DNA of 64,000 nucleotides from Naegleria gruberi (taxonomy: Eukaryota). Positions within the stretch are counted from its first letter, which is position 1, and each line of letters begins with the position of its first letter. The position numbers and the translations under genes were made by a program. Location: the NCBI GenBank assembly GCA_000004985.1, contig GG738891.1; one strand, written 5' to 3'. The notes beneath the pieces are model-generated. The model was given only the letters and a program-made list of their open reading frames with translations. It was not told the DNA's origin and ran no database searches. This document shows positions 3,919 to 52,940 of the stretch, piece by piece.

Positions 3919-6059
3919 ATGGCTAGTGAAGTGAATATGTTGAGTGGCACATCGGTCGATTTGAATGATGAAAAGCCTTCGGATCACAAAGTACACGTAG
4001 AACCAGCACCACCACAGGCACAATCCCGAAATCCTTTCAAAAGACTTAAACAACGAAAAGAGAAGGCTAATTTGAAACATAATAGTGAAGAAATACCAGA
4101 TCCTAGGGACCCTAAAATTGGTTTTAAAGACCAAATGGTTCTATTCAAAATGTTTGGAGCAGCAAATTGGTTTTTAATCTTTTTGGGTAGTATTGGTGCT
4201 ATGGGGTAAGTAGTTTATAATGATATGATGATTCTAATGTATTTAGTGCTGGTGTTATTCCATTGACTTTCCAATTTGTTTTGGGAGATTTATTGAATTC
4301 TTTGGCTACTGCTTTTGCAGATCCTAATGCTTTGAGAGATAGTGTTAATACAATTGCTGCTAAATTTGCAGGTATTGCATTGGGTGCTTTGATTGCGAAT
4401 TTCATGATGCAATTCTTTTTGAACTGGGCTTCCGAACGTATTGCTGTTGCTTTAAGAGAAGGATATTTCAATGCTCTTACAGCTCAAGAAATGGCCTTTT
4501 TTGATATTAAGAAAGTTGGTACTCTTACTGTAGCACTCAGTGAGGATGTTGCCAAAATTCAAGATACTTATACTTTAAAGTTTGCCACATTTTTACAACA
4601 AATGACACAATCCGTAGTTGGTATTGTTCTTGCCTTTGTCAGTAGTTGGCAAATGAGTTTAGTCATGATTTCAACTTCACCATTGATGGTTGTGTTTGTT
4701 GGTGGTTTGTCACAAATGATTAAGTGGTTGACCAAAAAAACAAACGATGCCAATGAACACTCTGCTGCCATTGCTACAGAAATTATTTCTTCAATGAGAA
4801 CTGTTAGAAGTATGGCTGGTGAAATTAAAGAACAAAATAGATTTAAGGAAGATTTGAAGAAGGTTGGATTATTCGGTTTTTGGAAAGCAATGTTCCAAGG
4901 TTTAACATTTGGTTCAATTACCTTCATTCTTTGGGGTACTGTTGCTTTGGCATTTTGGGTAAGTAGTAGTATGCATTTATTTAATGATAACTGTTTATTA
5001 TTAGTATGGTGGTGGTTTGACTGTTGATAAAACTATCACTCTTGGTGATATGTTTAAGGTATTCGGTCTTATGCTTATGGGTGTTCTCGGTCTCTCCCAA
5101 GCAGGTACCTTCTTCCCAGATTTGAGTAAGGCAAGAATGAGTCAAGTTACTCTTTTGAAAGTTATTAGAAGAAGTCCAGAAATTCCATTCAAGGGTGGAA
5201 AGACTTTGGAAAATATTTCTGGTAATATTTCTATTAGAAATGTCGATTTTATCTATCCTTCTCGTCCAAATATTACTGTTTTGAAGAACTTCTCCCTTGA
5301 AATTACACCAGGTCAATCCGTAGCTCTTGTTGGTCCTTCAGGTTCTGGTAAATCAACCATTGTTGGTCTTGTTGAAAGATTTTACAATGCAAACTCTGGT
5401 CAAATCTACATTGATGGTGTTGATATTACTGAACTCGATCCAATGTGGCTTCACAGAAAGATTGGTATTGTTACTCAAGAACCAGTGCGTAAGTATCTTT
5501 TGTTTTTATGCAATTAACAATTTGGAAAATAGTTTTTGCTTGTAGTATTAGAGATAACATTGCCTATGCTGTTGGTGCCGAAAATGTTACACAAGAACAA
5601 ATTGAAGATGCTGCTAAAGCTGCCAACTGTCACAATTTCATTGTTGATCTCCCAGAAGGTTATAACACAATGTTAGGTGAAAAGGGTGTTTCATTATCAG
5701 GTGGTCAAAAGCAAAGAATTGCTATTGCTCGTGCCTTGTTGCAAAATCCATCTGTTCTTTTATTGGATGAAGCTACATCTGCATTGGATACTGAATCAGA
5801 AGCTCTCGTTCAAGCTGCTTTGGACCATTTAATGAAAGGACGTACTTCAATTTGTATTGCCCACAGACTTTCAACAGTTAAGAACTCTGACACCATTTGT
5901 GTTTTGGCTAAGGGTGTTTTGGTTGAAAAGGGTAAACATGAAGAATTGTTACAAATTGAAAATGGTGTTTACAAAAAGTTAGCTGAAAAGCAAATGATGT
6001 TTGGTAAATCAGAGAGTAAGATTGATTTGGAAGCAGTTATGGATATTATTGAAGAGTAA
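3919..6059 (+). CDS. ABC transporter B-family half-transporter (TMD-NBD), about 669 aa, 4 exons
   Basis: Exons 3919..4205, 4247..4958, 5005..5488 and 5533..6059, with GTAAGT donors and introns of 41, 46 and 44 nt. The transmembrane domain has 6 helices. The nucleotide-binding domain carries Walker [11 protein letters not shown]-loop QEPVLF, signature LSGGQKQR and Walker [12 protein letters not shown]. Confidence 0.85.
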
Positions 6060-6279
6060 ACAATTTTGATAGAGAACGATTGTAAATAAATATTACGAGT
6101 TATTTAATTCTTTTACAAACTCTGAAAATATTCCCATATTGAATGAACATGCAAATTGTGATTCATTTTATTCCACTGCCGTATTATAATATTGAAGACT
6201 ATTGTAAAAATAGCATTTACAATATACTACGTATTTCAAATACGCATTTGCTGGATTATGAAAATATTATTAAAAAAAA

Positions 6280-7458
6280 ATGTCATCACTCAATCATGAA
6301 CAACGATTTTCCCGAATTGAAAAATTATTCAAAAACTTAGCCTCTACCCACAATCCTTCCGGAGAAGAATCCAATCTCATGCTCGAGATTAAATCCTTTC
6401 TACTCGATCACCAATTGATTGACAATTCAAATAGTTGTCATGATAATTTCCTCCTCTTTGATACTCAAATTGGAATGATATTCAAATGTAGTACTTTCAA
6501 TGATGAGAATCAAAATTTCATTTCGGATGAAAATTCACCATCGATTTGTTTATTTGCTCATCTTGATAGTGATCACATTGAATTGGAACAAGAAAAATTG
6601 AAACAATTAATTTGGAGAAGAGATGAAAATCTTCTTTACTATTCAAATAATGAAGAAATTGTTGAGGTTGGACTTGATGATAAGAGTGGAATTTGTGTCA
6701 TTTTGGAAACCTTGTTGAGATTGAAAGAAATGAAGGGTATTAGAGTGAATGTTTATGTTTGTTTTTCAGTACAGGAAGAAACTGGACAGAAAGGAGTTAT
6801 GAGAATGGATCATTTGATGTTTAAATCAATGGTTGAGGATGGAGGAGTGGGTTGTGGAATTGCTGTTGATAGAATGACATATTATCATCCAGAAAATAAG
6901 AGACATTTAGTGGACGAATATTGCCGAATTCCATTGATACCCAACGATCAAAAAGACTCTTTCATGAATCAATTTAATAAGAGCAGTCAATTGGTGGAGG
7001 GATGCGACATTGATTTCATCCCAAGTGAAAATTGCAGTGATCTATTGGAATATAAAATCAAATTGGATTGTGAAATTATTGCACCAGAAATGTTAGAATC
7101 CTTAAACGCTCACGATGTTAAATTATTCGAAAAACTTTCAACTCTCTTAGAGAAATATGAAAATATCACGAGTGAAATTAAGAAAATTATGAATAACATT
7201 TCAGCAACGAGTAGAGTGAGTGGATTTAAAAGTCATCCAAGATTTACCAGATATCAACTGGCACATCAAATTAATTCATTGATTTACTCTGACAAGGTAT
7301 TGAAATTTTACAATGAAACATCATTGAAAAAGTATTTAAATGTTTCTTTTGTAAATTTGAGTTTGGATTATGATGACAGTTGTGGATTTGTTTCTTTGAA
7401 AGAATTGGATAATACAGCTGAAATTTTATTTGATTTTATTAGAAATTATCACCTTTAA
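6280..7458 (+). CDS. M42-family (TET/FrvX-like) aminopeptidase homolog, 392 aa. This is a prokaryote-type family.
   Basis: Single exon. Motifs AHLDSDH, LDDKSGI and SVQEETGQKGV match the M42 metal-binding motifs AHMDEIG, LDDRAG and VQEEVGxRGA. Confidence 0.5.
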   Translation: MSSLNHEQRFSRIEKLFKNLASTHNPSGEESNLMLEIKSFLLDHQLIDNSNSCHDNFLLFDTQIGMIFKCSTFNDENQNFISDENSPSICLFAHLDSDHIELEQEKLKQLIWRRDENLLYYSNNEEIVEVGLDDKSGICVILETLLRLKEMKGIRVNVYVCFSVQEETGQKGVMRMDHLMFKSMVEDGGVGCGIAVDRMTYYHPENKRHLVDEYCRIPLIPNDQKDSFMNQFNKSSQLVEGCDIDFIPSENCSDLLEYKIKLDCEIIAPEMLESLNAHDVKLFEKLSTLLEKYENITSEIKKIMNNISATSRVSGFKSHPRFTRYQLAHQINSLIYSDKVLKFYNETSLKKYLNVSFVNLSLDYDDSCGFVSLKELDNTAEILFDFIRNYHL

Positions 7459-7662: not shown

Positions 7663-9558
7663 TCACTTGTATGAAATTTCTTTCATATCAAAGCTAGTAT
7701 TGATAAAGTCAATGATGTTCTTCTGAGTGTTTGTAATCAAGTGAGATTTACCTTGCATTGTGGTAATTCTAGATCTAAAGTCTCGTTCATCGAGTGATAA
7801 GTTCAGAATGGCATCTAAATTTAACAATAAATCAGAAGTATAGTCTTCCAAACGAGATAGATGGTCATTAAATAAATAACCATAGGTCTCTAACATTAAA
7901 AATTCCTTCTCTGACTTTTTGGTTGTGTTAAATTTGATTTTGAGTGTGTCAAATCCGAAATGAATGTAAGCAAATGCATAACATGAACGTAAGAGTCTTC
8001 TACATCTGTAGATATTTCTGAAAGAGTCGAGAAGGAATTTGAGATCCTTGGTTGGTCTAATATGGAAAAACTTTTCCTTATAATTTGCAATTTCGAGTCG
8101 ATAGTGACCTGTTCGTTTATGTTCCTCCAACCATTGATTGTGTCTTCTGTATAATGAGACGAATCTTCCATAAAGTTCTTCTGCTGCAGAGAATAATTTA
8201 ATATCTTCAGATGTTTTCACTGTCTTTGGAGCACAAACTGTTTCAGCATGAACGTAGGATGTATACTCTGAACCACACTATCGATGAAGAATCAAAACTA
8301 AACTCTCTTTGATGATGATACTTACAATATAACAAAATTCATGTCCACAAACACAATTAATGTGATTACATCCAACATCCTTAAATATAATTCTTTTACA
8401 CTTGTTACATTGTTGACTTGTTCTGTGAATAAACTCTTTCGATGCAAAATCATCCTGAGCAATAGTCAAGAATCTCTTATACACATCACATGAGCATGGG
8501 AAGTGAGGATCCTTATCACATTGGAAGCAACACTCTTCACCACACTTGCATTGAGCAATGTACAAACTTTCATCACATAGTTTCTTGATTGCATAGGGAC
8601 CATCACAGCCTGGATTAGGACACCACTTTAGTCTGTAACTTGAACCCACATATGAATCAATCTTTCTCTGGAAAAACTTTTCAAATAATTCCTTATCTTC
8701 CTTTGGATCCAATTGTGACAACATAAATGTCTCAGTAAGTGTAGTCTTACATGAATAGTCCATACACTTTACAGTATTATCATTCATTGCTGTTTTGACA
8801 TGATTGACAATATATTCCTTCCAACAAGTTCTACAGAAAACATGTCCACACATATCATATGCGTACAATGGAACATCATCTGAATAACAAGCATCACATG
8901 TGCCAATTGTTGAAGATGAACATGATTTTTTGAAATCTGGATTGAGTCCACACTTGGTTAATAAAGCATCCAATCCCAAATCACCATAATCTCTAATTAA
9001 TTTCTCTGTATTCCACTGATATTCCTTCAACATACATTCCACAAATACTTTACTCTTCAATTGAAGAGTTTCAGCTGCTGTCTTTACTTCTGCCTCTTGA
9101 TCTTGCAATAATTCCTTTGTATCAAGTACCTTGTACAATTCTCCTTTTGTTTTAAATTCCCTCGTCTTGACAACTTCTACAAAGGCAGATTCGTCCACTT
9201 GTTCACCAATATCATCATCAAAGTAATGTTCTTCTCCTACTATATCATCTTCATTGTATTCAATTTCCTCCTCCTCTTCATAATTTTCCTCTTCATGATC
9301 ATGATGATCACAACCACATTCCGGCGTCTCGTGCTCTTCTTCCTTCTCTTCATCATCAATTGAAGCTTCCAATAAATCACCATTCTCCTCACACATCTGA
9401 ATGACAGTCTCTATGGCAAGAGCCTCATCTAAATTACAATCCAAAACCACTTGATGGAGTGTTTGGAGGCTAATACTGGGAAAGAGTTCGTTCAATGAGA
9501 GAACGATTGCTTTTATTTTTTCCTTTCGTTTGTCCTTCTCGGATTGTTGTTGACTCAT
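7663..9558 (-). CDS. RBR (RING-IBR-RING) E3 ubiquitin ligase, ariadne-like, about 615 aa, 2 exons
   Basis: Exons 8326..9558 and 7663..8277 with a 48-nt GTAAGT...TAG intron. The splice joins EFCYI to CGSEYTSY. It has an N-terminal UBA/CUE-like helix, an acidic tract, a cysteine-rich RING1-IBR-RING2 region (CGHVFCRTCW...CGHEFCYIC) and a C-terminal ariadne-type domain. Confidence 0.75.
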
Positions 9559-9754
9559 TTTTTTATTTTGTTGATTTCTACGCTGTTTGTTTTCGAAATT
9601 GAAGTTGAGATGCTGAAAGTTCTTTGATAATGAAAAACAAACAAGAGTACTAAGTTACAAAAAAGGAAAACTTAAAAGGAAAGGGGACCAGTGGGAATCG
9701 AACCCACGGCCTCTCGCACCCAAAGCGAGAATCATACCACTAATTTTTATGAAA

Positions 9755-9815
9755 GGGATTTGTGAAGAAGGGATCTGTGAGGAAGGGATCCGTTACAAAA
9801 GGGATTCATTGAGAA
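9755..9815. repeat. Short-tandem-repeat array A, 4 copies of a 15-16 bp GGGATYYRTKNNRRAA unit, at one terminus of the insertion
   Basis: GGGATTTGTGAAGAA GGGATCTGTGAGGAA GGGATCCGTTACAAAA GGGATTCATTGAGAA, read directly from the sequence. Confidence 0.8.
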
Positions 9816-10247
9816 TGTGTTAGTTACTTTCGAATATTTAATTGAAATTTGATCTATATTAAAAAAAATTGCGGAAGGGGTAGTCTCTTTTTTGAAATTA
9901 ATAAAAATATACAATTTTGAAAATTAAAAATCAAGTTTTTTTATTGTTATTTGATGTTTGATTATTTTCTGTAAATTGATTAATTTCACATTTTCTATTA
10001 TGACAATAATGTGAATAATTAACACTTTTTGATGGTTTGTAATTTTGATTCATTTTCTTTTTTAAAATTTAATCTCATTCTAATTTTTAAAAATGTAATT
10101 GTTCATATTATTAAAATGTTATTTTTCTATTTACAATAAATTATTCTATCTCTCTTGAATATTTTTAATAATTGTAAATTTTCTAAAAAAAGGAAATAGA
10201 TAATATTCAATTAAATCCCTTCTAATTTTAAATTTTTTTTTGAGAAA

Positions 10248-10327
10248 GGGATTTGTGAGGAAGGGATTCATTGCAAAAGGGATCCGTTCTGAAAGGGATT
10301 CATTGAAAAATGGATTCATTATGGATG
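10248..10327. repeat. Short-tandem-repeat array B, 5 copies of the same unit, internal to the insertion
   Basis: GGGATTTGTGAGGAA GGGATTCATTGCAAAA GGGATCCGTTCTGAAA GGGATTCATTGAAAAA TGGATTCATTATGGATG. Confidence 0.8.
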
Positions 10328-10406
10328 TGATAGTTTCAAATTTTAATTAATAATATAAAATTAACACAATATTTATTCTATTTATATACATTTCTTTTTT
10401 TGGTAA

Positions 10407-10510
10407 TGGATTTCATTGCAAAAGGGATCCGTTAAAGAAGGGATTCATTACAGAAGGGATCTGTTACAAAAGGGATTCATTGTAAACGTGTTTCATTGAG
10501 AAAGTGTTTC
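10407..10510. repeat. Short-tandem-repeat array C, about 6 copies, at the other terminus of the insertion
   Basis: TGGATTTCATTGCAAAA GGGATCCGTTAAAGAA GGGATTCATTACAGAA GGGATCTGTTACAAAA GGGATTCATTGTAAAC GTGTTTCATTGAGAAA. It ends at the duplication junction. Confidence 0.8.
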
Positions 10511-10787
10511 TACCACTAGACCATGGTCCCTTACGTTTAAAATCCATTATATTTAAAATTGGTGCCTATAATACGGACTACATCTATTTTCCTTGTGTGA
10601 TTCATTACAAAAGGATGGCTATTCAAAACTTTAGAAGGTTACAATTTTAAATGTACTTTGCATGTTACTCACTATTTTTAGTGTCCCAATAGATTTCACT
10701 CACATTCTATTGAAGGTGTTGTGAAAAAAAAAGCACCAACAACCAATACCTTTACTAATCGCTCACTGCCAGCAGTTCATTACCAAC

Positions 10788-11789
10788 ATGTTTACCTTCG
10801 AAGACGAAGAAGCTGAACAAGGTTTTCCATTTGAAAACTCAACCCCAGAGCAAATTATTAACCATCTACAAACTCATGACCATCCTGAAACAATCATCAA
10901 TTCTCAACAAGTGCTTATCATGGCTGTTGAGAATTGTAAAGATTGTTATGAACAGGGAGAAGAGGAAGACTACGTGGAATGGTTCAAATTATGTGAATAT
11001 TTAACATCCAAAAGTGGAGTTAATATTAATGTTTGTAGATGTATTGAAGATGACTATGATTATCCATTATCAATTGCCATTGAATCGTGCGATTTAAAAT
11101 TGATAGAATTGATACTCTCTCATGGAGCTGATCCAAATAATGGAGCTGGTTTCAGATGTAGAAATGTAATGATTAACCTTGCAATTCAAGAAGGATCGAT
11201 GGATATTTTGAAATTATTGCTAAAATATGGAGCTGATGTCAACAAATTCAATACAGTGCATTGTGGAAGATTCTCTCCATGGAATTGTGCCTATTCGAAT
11301 CAAGAGTTTGAAATATTGGATTTTCTCCTAAATCTTCCAAATATTTCTCTAAAGAATTCAAGAATTTTTCATGAAGCTTCTGCGAATGGAGATGTGAAAA
11401 TGGTTGAATTATTAATTAAGAATCATTTTCCAATTTTGGATTTGAATCATGGTAATTATTCAACTCCATTATTTGAAGCATGTAAGGGACAATTCGTTGA
11501 AGTTGTGAAATTACTTGTTCCTCTGCCAGGAATTGACATTAATTTGGGAAGCTATTCTGGAAGAATGGAAACACCTTTACAAAATGCAATTCGAAATTCA
11601 AATATTGAAATTGTCAGTTTGCTAATTTCACACGGAGCCATATTTACAGAATCTGATAGTTTGGAAGCACATAATAATGCAGGTATCAATCTTTATCAAA
11701 TCAAACTTCAAACACAACCAGTTTCGCAACTTCAAAAATTGCTACATTCTAACCTTGCACTTTCTGACACCACATTCGAATATCAATAA
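10788..11789 (+). CDS. ankyrin-repeat protein, 333 aa
   Basis: Single ORF with tandem ankyrin motifs: LHxAxxxGxxxxVxxLLxxGAD occurs several times. Confidence 0.65.
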   Translation: MFTFEDEEAEQGFPFENSTPEQIINHLQTHDHPETIINSQQVLIMAVENCKDCYEQGEEEDYVEWFKLCEYLTSKSGVNINVCRCIEDDYDYPLSIAIESCDLKLIELILSHGADPNNGAGFRCRNVMINLAIQEGSMDILKLLLKYGADVNKFNTVHCGRFSPWNCAYSNQEFEILDFLLNLPNISLKNSRIFHEASANGDVKMVELLIKNHFPILDLNHGNYSTPLFEACKGQFVEVVKLLVPLPGIDINLGSYSGRMETPLQNAIRNSNIEIVSLLISHGAIFTESDSLEAHNNAGINLYQIKLQTQPVSQLQKLLHSNLALSDTTFEYQ

Positions 11790-15216: not shown

Positions 15217-16648
15217 TTATTTTACATAAACTCTCTTCAATCTAGGTAATAAAGCAGTTACAACTTCATAGTTAATAGTATTGGACCAGTGTGACACCAT
15301 TTCACATGTCACTTCCTTACCATCTTGTTCACCAATTAAGACTACTTCATCATTGATTTTAACTCTATCTACAACAGTTGGAGAAATTTTAACTACAAAT
15401 TGATCCATGCAAATTCTACCAACTATTGGACACTCTTCACCTCTAATTAATACGTGGGCCTTACCAGTATTAATTCTCTTGTATCCATCTCCATAACCAA
15501 CTGGGACTAATGCAAGGGTTTCGTCATCCTCTGCAACTGTATAGGTATTTCCGTATGAAACTGGTGATCCCTTTGGGAATTTTTGAACTCTTCCAAGGTG
15601 CGAAACAACAGTGAGAGCAGGTTTCAATTTGAATGGAAGTCTTGGATCATCTCTATCATTACTTGGTGAAAGTCCATAAATTGAAATACCTGGTCTAATC
15701 ATATCCATGTGCATTTCTGGGAAGAATAGAGTTCCAGCACTATTGCAACAATGGTAAGTGAGTGGCTTTTCAAAAACTCTTGAAACTTGATGATTTTCAA
15801 TCATTTTCTTCACCTCCATGAATTTATAAAATTGCTCTCTCGTATAGTCTGGGCTCATCTCATCAGCACTTGAAAAGTGTGTAAATACTCCTGTAATTTT
15901 GATTCTATTGTACAATTTCATTGGATTAATAGTGAACCATCTCAAGAAATTTTCCAATTTTTCAGGATGAGCTCCAAATCTTCCCATTCCAGTATCAACC
16001 TTCAAATGTACATTAATGGTTTTATCTTGTTTTTCACATTCTCTAAACAGAGTTTCAACAATTAATCTACTGCCTGAAATAGTTGGAGTTAAATTGTAAG
16101 TGACACATTCCTTCACCTCCTCTGGAATGGCATAACCCAACACTAGAATTTCAATATTTGCATTTTCCTTACTCAAATTACTACGAATTTTAACACCTTC
16201 CTTCACTCTATTTACTGCAAATTGTTTAATTGACAATTCATTGTAAAGTTCCCTGACAACTGGTGTATCTCCGTGTCCTATAATATCATGAAATCATGAA
16301 ATTGGATTCGTCGTATGAGTGAAATTGTCATCACATCCGAAATTAATTTTTTCATCATTAACAAATATACATCATGAGAATATTTTCAACATCATGATTA
16401 AATATATTCCGATCCATAATTTACCTACCATAGGCATTGGCTTTAACCACTGGCATTACGTGAATATCCTGATTGTAGTTTTTAGCAAAATTTACAGTAT
16501 TTTCCACATTTTCAGTGATATTCCTCAAATTCACAATCGCACACGAAGTTGATTGTAGTTTTCGTGGCACATTGGACAAGGTTGTTCCCAAATGTTTTAA
16601 CAAGTTGGATGTTGTTGTTCCTTGTTTCATCATTTTTTTTCTGAGCAA
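15217..16648 (-). CDS. alr: alanine racemase (PLP-dependent, bacterial type), about 426 aa, 2 exons, with an N-terminal extension of about 45 aa
   Basis: Exons 16429..16648 and 15217..16277. The 151-nt intron has a GTAGGT donor and splits the Gly codon of the PLP-binding motif VVKANAYG/HGD. The C-terminal domain has the ICMDQFVV motif typical of Alr. Confidence 0.75.
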
Positions 16649-52821: not shown

Positions 52822-52940
52822 AGACTACAGCACCACAGGTTCCCAAGTTGTCTCCAACCTCAGTACTGATGTGGCTCGACGATGCTTAACTTCTCAAATC
52901 GGACGGGATGAGGTGCATGAATCGTGATATGGCCGTAGCC
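52822..52940 (-). rRNA. 5S ribosomal RNA gene, about 119 nt, a single dispersed copy
   Basis: The reverse complement reads GGCTACGGCCATATCACGATTCATGCACCTCATCCCGTCCGATTTGAGAAGTTAAGCATCGTCGAGCCACATCAGTACTGAGGTTGGAGACAACTTGGGAACCTGTGGTGCTGTAGTC. It is collinear with vertebrate 5S, GTCTACGGCCATACC...GGGAGACCGCCTGGGAATACCGGGTGCTGTAGGC. The 5' and 3' ends pair and a T6 run follows. Confidence 0.9.

Follow-up and report, generated by a model that had tools for sequence, protein, structure and literature searches.

A 768-bp insertion with direct repeat arrays at both ends splits a tRNA-Pro(UGG) gene of Naegleria gruberi

The insert and the split tRNA gene

We analyzed a 64-kb stretch of genomic DNA from Naegleria gruberi (contig GG738891.1, referred to as the window) and found that a tRNA-Pro(UGG) gene is split by an insert of 768 bp (positions 9743–10510, plus strand, 24% GC). 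The insert carries arrays of a short iterated unit (iteron) at both ends, all in direct orientation and without terminal inverted repeats, and it is bounded by an 8-bp duplication of the tRNA gene. This end architecture is unusual. The data demonstrate the insertion, its exact boundaries and its modular anatomy; the insert itself remains an unclassified insertion and is probably a small non-autonomous mobile element. Everything reported here on the element refers to the one copy in the window.

The target-site duplication is the exact octamer TACCACTA, with copies at 9735–9742 and 10511–10518. These are the only two sites of TACCACTA on the plus strand of the window, and both flank the insert. 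The duplication is exactly 8 bp long, because the bases next to the octamer differ on each side. The junctions are clean, with neither loss nor filler. A clean 8-bp duplication of this kind is what a staggered cut and subsequent gap repair leave behind, as in transposition.

ARAGORN detected no tRNA in the unaltered window. After removal of positions 9743–10518 (the insert and one duplicate) it returned a perfect, canonical tRNA-Pro(UGG) of 72 nucleotides (nt) on the minus strand, in which the A box and the B box are intact and no defects are present. This bears out a first-pass annotation of this DNA, which had described the tRNA as disrupted by an insertion. The 3' part of the gene (tRNA nt 13–72, comprising the anticodon arm, the B box and the 3' strand of the acceptor) lies at 9683–9742 (minus strand), and the 5' part (nt 1–20, comprising the 5' strand of the acceptor and the A box) at 10511–10530 (minus strand), both located by ARAGORN on the restored sequence. 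In the tRNA sense the duplication reads TAGTGGTA and corresponds to nt 13–20, which belong to the D-loop and fall within the A box; nt 51–61 form the B box. The insertion moved the two promoter boxes 776 bp further apart. On the tRNA sense strand the insert contains 14 runs of at least four T, the first of them at insert nt 40. Because of this displacement of the boxes and the 14 T-runs we regard the tRNA-Pro gene as inactivated. A tRNA intron is ruled out by the 8-bp duplication together with the same T-runs.

The split gene is the sole tRNA-like sequence in the 64 kb. The genome of N. gruberi has a size of about 41 Mb. With 924 tRNA genes (PMC2888827), tRNA bodies make up approximately 0.16% of it.

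Repeat arrays and modules

In the window we counted 12 exact matches to the motif AAGGGATYYRT, all on the plus strand and all within 9753–10480, compared with 0.33 expected and a maximum of 2 in dinucleotide-preserving shuffles. The three direct clusters of repeats that had been annotated at this place were thus recovered. A weight matrix built from the units gave 13 strong matches, every one inside the insert, and 7 matches outside it compared with 6.5 expected, i.e. background. Tandem Repeats Finder reported periods of 15–16 bp as well as a higher-order period of 32 bp, with 76–86% matches. The longer period arises because units of the types ...ATCCGTT... and ...ATTCATT... alternate.

Array 1 (9753–9813) consists of four good units and one degenerate unit, array 2 (10246–10322) of five good units and one degenerate unit, and array 3 (10405–10510) of five good units and two degenerate ones. 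The units are 15–17 bp long and include the types AAGGGATCCGTT and AAGGGATTCATT. The first-pass annotation had given the unit the form GGGATYCRTT; the repeats as such hold, and the form fails for the first units of arrays 1 and 2, which are of the GGGATTTGTG type. The three arrays share one direct orientation and occupy the left end, an internal position and the right end of the insert, as had been claimed, except that the left array begins 10 nt inside the left end of the insert. The right array finishes exactly at the right end.

The arrays are embedded in modules of a common plan: a T-run followed by GA or GG, four to seven iterons, and one or two degenerate GTGTT or GTGAT units closing in TTTC. 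Module 1 (9753–9829, plus strand) is preceded by its T-run and GA at 9743–9752 and contains four AAGGGAT units and a degenerate unit of the GTGTT type. Module 2 (10246–10335, plus strand) contains five units (10246–10322) and a degenerate GTGAT-type unit closing in TTTC. Module 3 (10405–10510, plus strand) contains five units and two degenerate units of the GTGTTTC type and stops at the right boundary of the insert, which coincides with the ...GTTTC closing this module. The ends of the insert accordingly read 5' ATTTTTATGA-AAGGGAT... and ...GTGTTTC 3'.

Between the modules lie a long AT-rich spacer (9830–10235), with one small GC-rich island, GCGGAAGGGGTAGTCTC, at about 9872–9888, and a short AT-rich spacer (10336–10404). 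Bounded more closely by the arrays, the long spacer (9816–10241) measures 426 bp at 83% AT and the short spacer (10326–10403) 78 bp at 86% AT, in good agreement with the annotated value of about 80%. We also considered the short spacer as a shortened version of the long one. With the arrays excluded, the alignment of the two was no better than that of shuffles or of other AT-rich DNA (P = 0.19); earlier BLAST alignments between the spacers had been driven by the arrays.

Within the unit, the conserved core is AAGGGAT-YYR-T-K. Positions 1–7 (AAGGGAT) and 11 (T) are essentially invariant, positions 8–10 vary by transitions only, and position 12 is T or G. At positions 9–10 we observed CG three times, TG four times and CA six times, and TA never. 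These twelve core positions are conserved, and the linker of 3–5 bp (positions 13–16) is variable. A role of the unit as a protein-binding module, proposed in the first-pass annotation, seems plausible because the 12-bp core is conserved while the linker varies. The profile fits a protein-binding iteron, and just as well an ancestral AAGGGATCCGTT that erodes through deamination of cytosines. In N. gruberi, cytosine methylation occurs in every sequence context and favors repeats (PMC12344493).

Outside the insert, at 10599–10614 (plus strand), we observed a single unit-like 16-mer, GATTCATTACAAAAGG. It matches array 16-mers at 15 of 16 positions and is located about 70 bp upstream of the 5' end of the tRNA, in the same orientation as the arrays. 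Taken over the whole window such a match is not significant (0.59 expected, at least one match in 32% of shuffles). It could be what remains of an earlier insertion, or coincidental; the one suggestive point is its proximity to the insert. Another repeat, the 16-nt tandem pair TCCCTTACGTTTAAAA / TCCATTATATTTAAAA with 81% identity, extends from the first bases of the tRNA into its 5' flank (10527–10558, plus strand). On the tRNA strand the pair places AATGGA, AAGGGA and TATA-like A/T tracts immediately before the gene, on its upstream side, and it may represent an upstream element for RNA polymerase III (Pol III) or a coincidence.

Terminal features, coding capacity and class

Between the two 90-nt ends of the insert we found no common inverted k-mer of at least 7 nt, and the number of common 6-mers does not exceed chance (P = 0.11). 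Over their terminal 20 nt the two ends match at 1 of 20 positions, and an inverted-repeat listing of the region contained no terminal pair. Sub-terminal inverted repeats of the Dada type (at least 7 bp), or such repeats mirrored in the target, were not found in the insert either. The ends and the target flanks have two isolated 7-mers in common, GAAAGGG (direct) and ACGTTTA (inverted).

The longest open reading frame (ORF) of the insert encodes 57 amino acids (aa). Among the 37 ORFs of at least 150 aa in the window, a Pfam scan revealed no transposase, recombinase or reverse transcriptase; the ORFs with Pfam matches carry ordinary host domains. In a permissive Rfam scan of the insert no family came near its threshold, and there was no match to tRNA, 5S or 7SL RNA. 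No ribozyme, the hammerhead included, was near threshold in the insert; the best was GIR1 with 16 bits compared with a gathering score of 100. The insert contains no B box at up to one mismatch and no Pol III promoter boxes. It also lacks a poly(A) tail or a 3' tail of the type found in long interspersed elements (LINEs), with ends reading ...GTGTTTC on the plus strand and ...CATAAAAAT on the minus strand.

These features were compared with those of known classes of mobile elements. A Helitron is ruled out, as Helitrons leave no duplication, and so is a foldback element, which would need inverted arrays. A Crypton-like structure is disfavored by the lack of core-type inverted sites around the 8-mer. 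For a miniature element of the Mutator or Mutator-like element (MULE) type, both the duplication of 9–11 bp and the long terminal inverted repeats are missing. A retroposon dependent on LINEs, such as a short interspersed element (SINE), would have a tail, a promoter and a head derived from an RNA gene, none of which is present, and the repeated ends contain no ribozyme as in a Penelope-like element or retrozyme. Terminal direct modules, as looked for in a long terminal repeat (LTR) or TRIM element, are indeed present. The ends of the insert are AT...TC and not TG...CA, and the duplication is 8 bp and not 4–6 bp. A complement of the 3' end of this tRNA-Pro, the one tRNA considered for a primer-binding site, is absent from the insert. 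The closest known parallel of the element is Dada. We assign it to no named family, because N. gruberi is outside the reported Dada hosts and a Dada transposase is not known from Naegleria.

Age of the insertion

A closely related Naegleria strain with 99–100% protein identity is present in the metagenome run ERR1078381 (ENA ERZ929261, PRJEB11402). Its NCKAP1 is 100% identical to that encoded in the window and its RBR protein 99% identical. Contig L002 of this strain begins inside the T-arm of the same tRNA-Pro, adjoining the same gene. The last 28 nt of the tRNA are identical between the window and L002, and the adjoining spacer from the tRNA to the gene is 84% identical. The chance that an unconstrained 28-mer stays identical at this level is approximately 0.008 (0.84 to the power of 28). 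The contigs L001 and L002 of the strain break at or inside the tRNA, and the contigs of more distant homologues (L003, L017 and L018) carry no tRNA.

The identity of these 28 nt, the flawless restored tRNA and the perfect duplication together indicate that the disruption happened long after the strains had diverged. The insertion is thus recent. The three modules differ from each other by about 20–30%, and because of this divergence we conclude that their modular structure predates the insertion and came with the donor.

Search for relatives of the insert

A scan with a three-unit pattern of JGI metagenome contigs, GTDB genome contigs and IMG/VR viral contigs yielded unrelated repeats only, for the most part perfect tandem arrays from bacterial and other contigs. 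The candidate L012, a eukaryotic contig, is unrelated and breaks off after 2.6 units. A looser two-unit scan of the viral contigs matched a phage coding repeat (MKKGS...), and a viral scan with the GC-rich island GCGGAAGGGGTAGTCTC gave no match. The exact look-up of the 57-aa and 55-aa ORFs of the insert among predicted proteins returned nothing. An exhaustive HMMER search with the 57-aa ORF, which lies over array 2, gave one match, an unrelated serine protease.

The insert had no relevant match among E. coli genomes, plasmids and phages. Its only phage match covers 155 bp with 69% identity to a Mycoplasma phage and lies within the AT-rich spacer. A cloning artifact caused by an E. coli insertion sequence is excluded, because there is no match to an E. 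coli genome or plasmid. Insert-like matches at about 14.9–15.2 kb and 53.0–53.2 kb of the window turned out to be AT-rich introns or intergenic DNA. In the literature we found no account of this element or of a tRNA-inserting element of Naegleria; Repbase may hold N. gruberi consensus sequences.

Genomic neighborhood

The ankyrin gene to the right of the insert (10788–11789) is 100% identical over its full length to XP_002673337.1 (NAEGRDRAFT_71555). The gene of an RBR E3 ligase to the left clusters with NAEGRDRAFT_71554, and NCKAP1 clusters with NAEGRDRAFT_59016, with 83% identity to N. fowleri and 71% to Willaertia magna. NAEGRDRAFT_71554, 71555 and 59016 are all located on one 339,217-bp scaffold of N. 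gruberi NEG-M. The window is thus N. gruberi NEG-M, and the annotated judgment that an Entamoeba origin is unlikely was correct.

The 426-aa ORF at 8278–9558 (minus strand) covers no more than the initial exon or exons of the RBR E3 ligase, which is annotated with 615 aa (NAEGRDRAFT_71554, P0020). By its position, the insert lengthened the divergent promoter region between NAEGRDRAFT_71554 and 71555 from about 450 bp to about 1230 bp. At 52822–52940 (minus strand) a complete, lone 5S rRNA gene lies among protein-coding genes (Rfam score of 100 bits, E = 1e-20); this is the sole Rfam family in the window that reaches its gathering score. The AT-rich DNA upstream of the 5S gene has weak matches to the spacer of the insert that are compositional only.

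An intron-free ORF at 15217–16236 (minus strand) contains full-length N- and C-terminal domains of alanine racemase, with E-values of about 1e-40 each. This family is typically bacterial, and the gene may have reached Naegleria by lateral transfer. At 4263–7458 (plus strand) fragments of an ABC transporter were found in three adjacent frames, and next comes an ORF in which an M42 glutamyl aminopeptidase domain is partly present. The fragments suggest a gene with introns or frame changes. The order of the ABC-transporter and M42 sequences is the same on contig L001 of the related strain.

Proposed origin of the insert

Based on the boundaries and the anatomy of the insert, we tentatively favor, with slightly less than even confidence, the recent insertion of a non-autonomous mobile DNA element without terminal inverted repeats, whose iterons bind the mobilizing protein. 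The three arrays are copies of one repeated module and make up both ends and one internal segment of the insert. This AT-rich, non-coding DNA of 768 bp entered the D-loop and A box of the tRNA-Pro(UGG) gene by way of a staggered cut, which duplicated 8 bp (tRNA nt 13–20) and killed the gene. The iterons would serve as binding sites, and a transposase or recombinase encoded elsewhere would recognize both ends. We infer the mobility as a family, the movement as DNA and the binding of a mobilizing protein by the iterons.

In favor of this proposal, the units all point the same way, and the window outside the insert lacks the motif. The absence of poly(A), of Pol III promoter boxes and of a ribozyme near threshold agrees with a DNA transposon. 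The duplication of 8 bp is within the range of 4–10 bp of the hAT/P/MuDR/Dada group (PMC3706591). Dada (Kojima & Jurka 2013, PMC3706591; Kojima 2022, PMC8869645) is a documented group of DNA transposons that do without terminal inverted repeats and have insertion sites within tRNA genes, and most repeats of N. gruberi are unclassified (PMC12344493).

Several observations weigh against the proposal. A single copy was seen, so that the mobility of a family rests on inference. The ORFs of at least 150 aa in the window include no transposase, recombinase or reverse transcriptase, and the scans of JGI, GTDB and IMG/VR contigs and of predicted proteins yielded no related array or element. Both ends bear the module in direct orientation without inverted symmetry, which is unusual for cut-and-paste transposition; a retroposon, or a circular element that a recombinase integrates, would have such a geometry naturally. 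Finally, the variation within the core consists of transitions only, which decay by deamination explains as readily as functional constraint.

Alternative explanations

The missing inverted repeats and the asymmetric ends would also be expected from a retroposon inserted by target-primed reverse transcription, that is, a non-autonomous, RNA-derived composite similar to SVA. The 16-bp units would then be a tandem-repeat 3' tail plus internal repeats of variable number, and the nicks of a LINE endonuclease would have given the 8-bp duplication. The length of the duplication varies among LINE-mediated insertions, and in some LINE clades short tandem repeats take the place of a terminal poly(A). 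The right end of the insert is indeed the end of a repeat array, and the minus-strand 3' end ...CATAAAAAT is weakly A-rich. We nevertheless consider a retroposon unlikely: there is no poly(A), no head resembling tRNA, 5S or 7SL RNA and no A or B box inside the insert, neither 3' end has microhomology with the target, arrays are also present at the 5' end and internally, and no window ORF of at least 150 aa encodes a reverse transcriptase. Integration of a circular element through Crypton- or integrase-type site-specific recombination would explain the direct modules at both ends and the missing inverted repeats as well. The 8 bp would be the crossover core, and in the circle the arrays of the two ends would be contiguous and form one cluster of recombinase-binding sites. 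Overlap regions of tyrosine recombinases have 6–8 bp, and tRNA genes are classic targets of integrases, mainly in prokaryotes. This explanation is very doubtful, since inverted core-type sites surround the 8-mer neither in the reconstructed circular junction nor in the target, beyond 8 bp the identity ends abruptly, the window ORFs of at least 150 aa include no recombinase gene and the tRNA is not restored by the insert, unlike typical integrase targets. Repeat-rich, AT-rich DNA that is not a transposon might instead have been captured to fill a staggered double-strand break in the tRNA gene. Such DNA could have come from the non-ribosomal region of the ribosomal DNA (rDNA) plasmid CERE (AB298288.1), from mitochondrial DNA or from a circle that had been excised out of a minisatellite. 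The single copy, the lack of coding capacity and of recognizable transposon ends, and the GC content of 24%, which resembles that of organellar DNA, are all compatible with capture. A passage in PMC13398248 gives about 4000 copies for the circular rDNA plasmid of Naegleria, and that of N. fowleri is reported to consist of repeat elements to 46% (PMC11075319). Capture is nevertheless improbable, as the clean 8-bp duplication without deletion or filler is, by established knowledge, typical of transposition and not of end-joining capture, and the boundaries of the insert match module boundaries, with the right end at the ...GTTTC that closes a module.

Among DNA transposons, the first-pass annotation had pointed to miniature elements of the hAT or Mutator type, with the tandem repeats as transposase-binding sites. 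The length of the duplication, 8 bp, fits hAT, and the CCGTT units hold AACGG on the reverse strand. This resembles the sub-terminal AAACGG repeats that are bound by the Ac transposase. Ends of hAT elements are typically YARNG and their duplications follow the pattern nTnnnnAn; duplications of Mutator usually have 9–11 bp. The ends of the insert do not start with YARNG, TACCACTA does not fit nTnnnnAn, and the ends have neither terminal inverted repeats nor an inverted 7-mer in common, with all arrays being direct. Membership in either group is therefore extremely unlikely and we did not adopt it. A non-autonomous member of the Dada superfamily would agree with the position inside a tRNA gene, within the A box, and with the lack of terminal inverted repeats. 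The duplications of Dada, 6–7 bp long, can look like 8 bp, and TAGCTCAG is readable as TAGCTC followed by AG. Dada targets often start with TAG, and the superfamily is present in the protist Perkinsus marinus (PMC3706591, PMC8869645). The duplication at tRNA nt 13–20 is, however, offset from the recurrent Dada sites, which are nt 8–13 or the anticodon stem (PMC8869645), and the insert has no sub-terminal inverted repeat of at least 7 bp and none mirrored in the target. N. gruberi is missing from the host list in Table 1 of PMC3706591, a paper in which the name Naegleria has zero occurrences. The sole non-autonomous example given there, Dada-U6N1_DR, is a copy with an internal deletion that measures about 1.8 kb, and not an iteron-built element of 0.8 kb. 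Among the window ORFs of at least 150 aa there is also no Dada transposase, a DDE protein with a CCCC zinc finger and a DxxH motif. On balance membership in Dada is very unlikely. We regard as decidedly unlikely, too, that the insert belongs to an undescribed family of DNA elements of Heterolobosea (Discoba), either a divergent Dada or a new superfamily, which would lack inverted ends and be specific for tRNA genes, inserting into their A box and D-loop. In such a family the ends would be set by direct arrays of AAGGGAT-core iterons, possibly with a circular intermediate.

Implications

Whatever its class, the insert is a clean example of a recent insertion in N. gruberi. If it is a one-off, one of roughly 924 tRNA genes of this species is a recently split pseudogene that is missed by tRNA finders. 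Should other copies, on the other hand, sit at the same tRNA position, the targeting of small-RNA genes by DNA elements without inverted ends, so far known from Dada only, would extend to a deep-branching lineage of eukaryotes. In that case there would also be a compact end module of 12-bp core iterons for which the binding protein could be sought. For safe-harbor integration, elements confined to a single harmless, multicopy site are of practical interest as tools.

Comparison with known systems

The arrangement of the insert has a formal counterpart in the iteron origins of plasmids (oriV), which contain clusters of direct repeats of 15–22 bp with a conserved core and adjoining AT-rich DNA. 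The likeness is confined to the architecture, as the insert has no initiator gene and lies in a chromosomal context.

Short tandem repeats beside tRNA in an AT-rich amoeboid protist are also known from the tRNA arrays of Entamoeba, a likeness that had been noted in the first-pass annotation. In Entamoeba the repeats fill the spacers between intact tandem tRNA genes (Clark 2006 and Tawari 2008, as cited in PMC2888827). In our case a single tRNA gene is split by a duplication-bounded insert, there is no tandem tRNA array and the host is a heterolobosean and not an amoebozoan, so we do not uphold this comparison.

Composites of the SVA type and LINEs or SINEs with tandem tails resemble the insert in being asymmetric, in lacking inverted repeats and in having flanking duplications and arrays of short units. 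The insert, by contrast, lacks a poly(A) stretch, a tail derived from a LINE, a Pol III promoter and a head derived from an RNA gene. The non-TIR MULEs of plants, compared here by duplication length and inverted repeats, likewise have no long terminal inverted repeats (TIRs) and yet produce target duplications. They are a plant lineage with a typical duplication of 9–10 bp, and we know of no iteron arrays described for them.

Miniature hAT elements of the Ac/Ds type share with the insert the 8-bp duplication and short motifs that are reiterated sub-terminally. In hAT these motifs serve as transposase-binding sites. The insert lacks terminal inverted repeats, has the motifs in the same orientation at both ends and shows a duplication that is off the hAT consensus.

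The insert is closest to Dada. With a length of 0.8 kb and a build of direct iteron arrays and AT-rich spacers, it is not a deletion derivative of a Dada element of 5–11 kb. In a Dada family all copies lie at one site in one type of RNA gene. The duplications of Dada have 6–7 bp and sometimes look like 8 bp; PMC3706591 reads some of the latter as 6 bp plus two matching bases. In the single copy of the insert the apparent duplication is 8 bp. Dada elements, like the insert, lack terminal inverted repeats and lie within multicopy small-RNA genes including those of tRNAs, often in the A box (PMC3706591, PMC8869645), where the loss of one copy of a highly multicopy target is harmless to the host.

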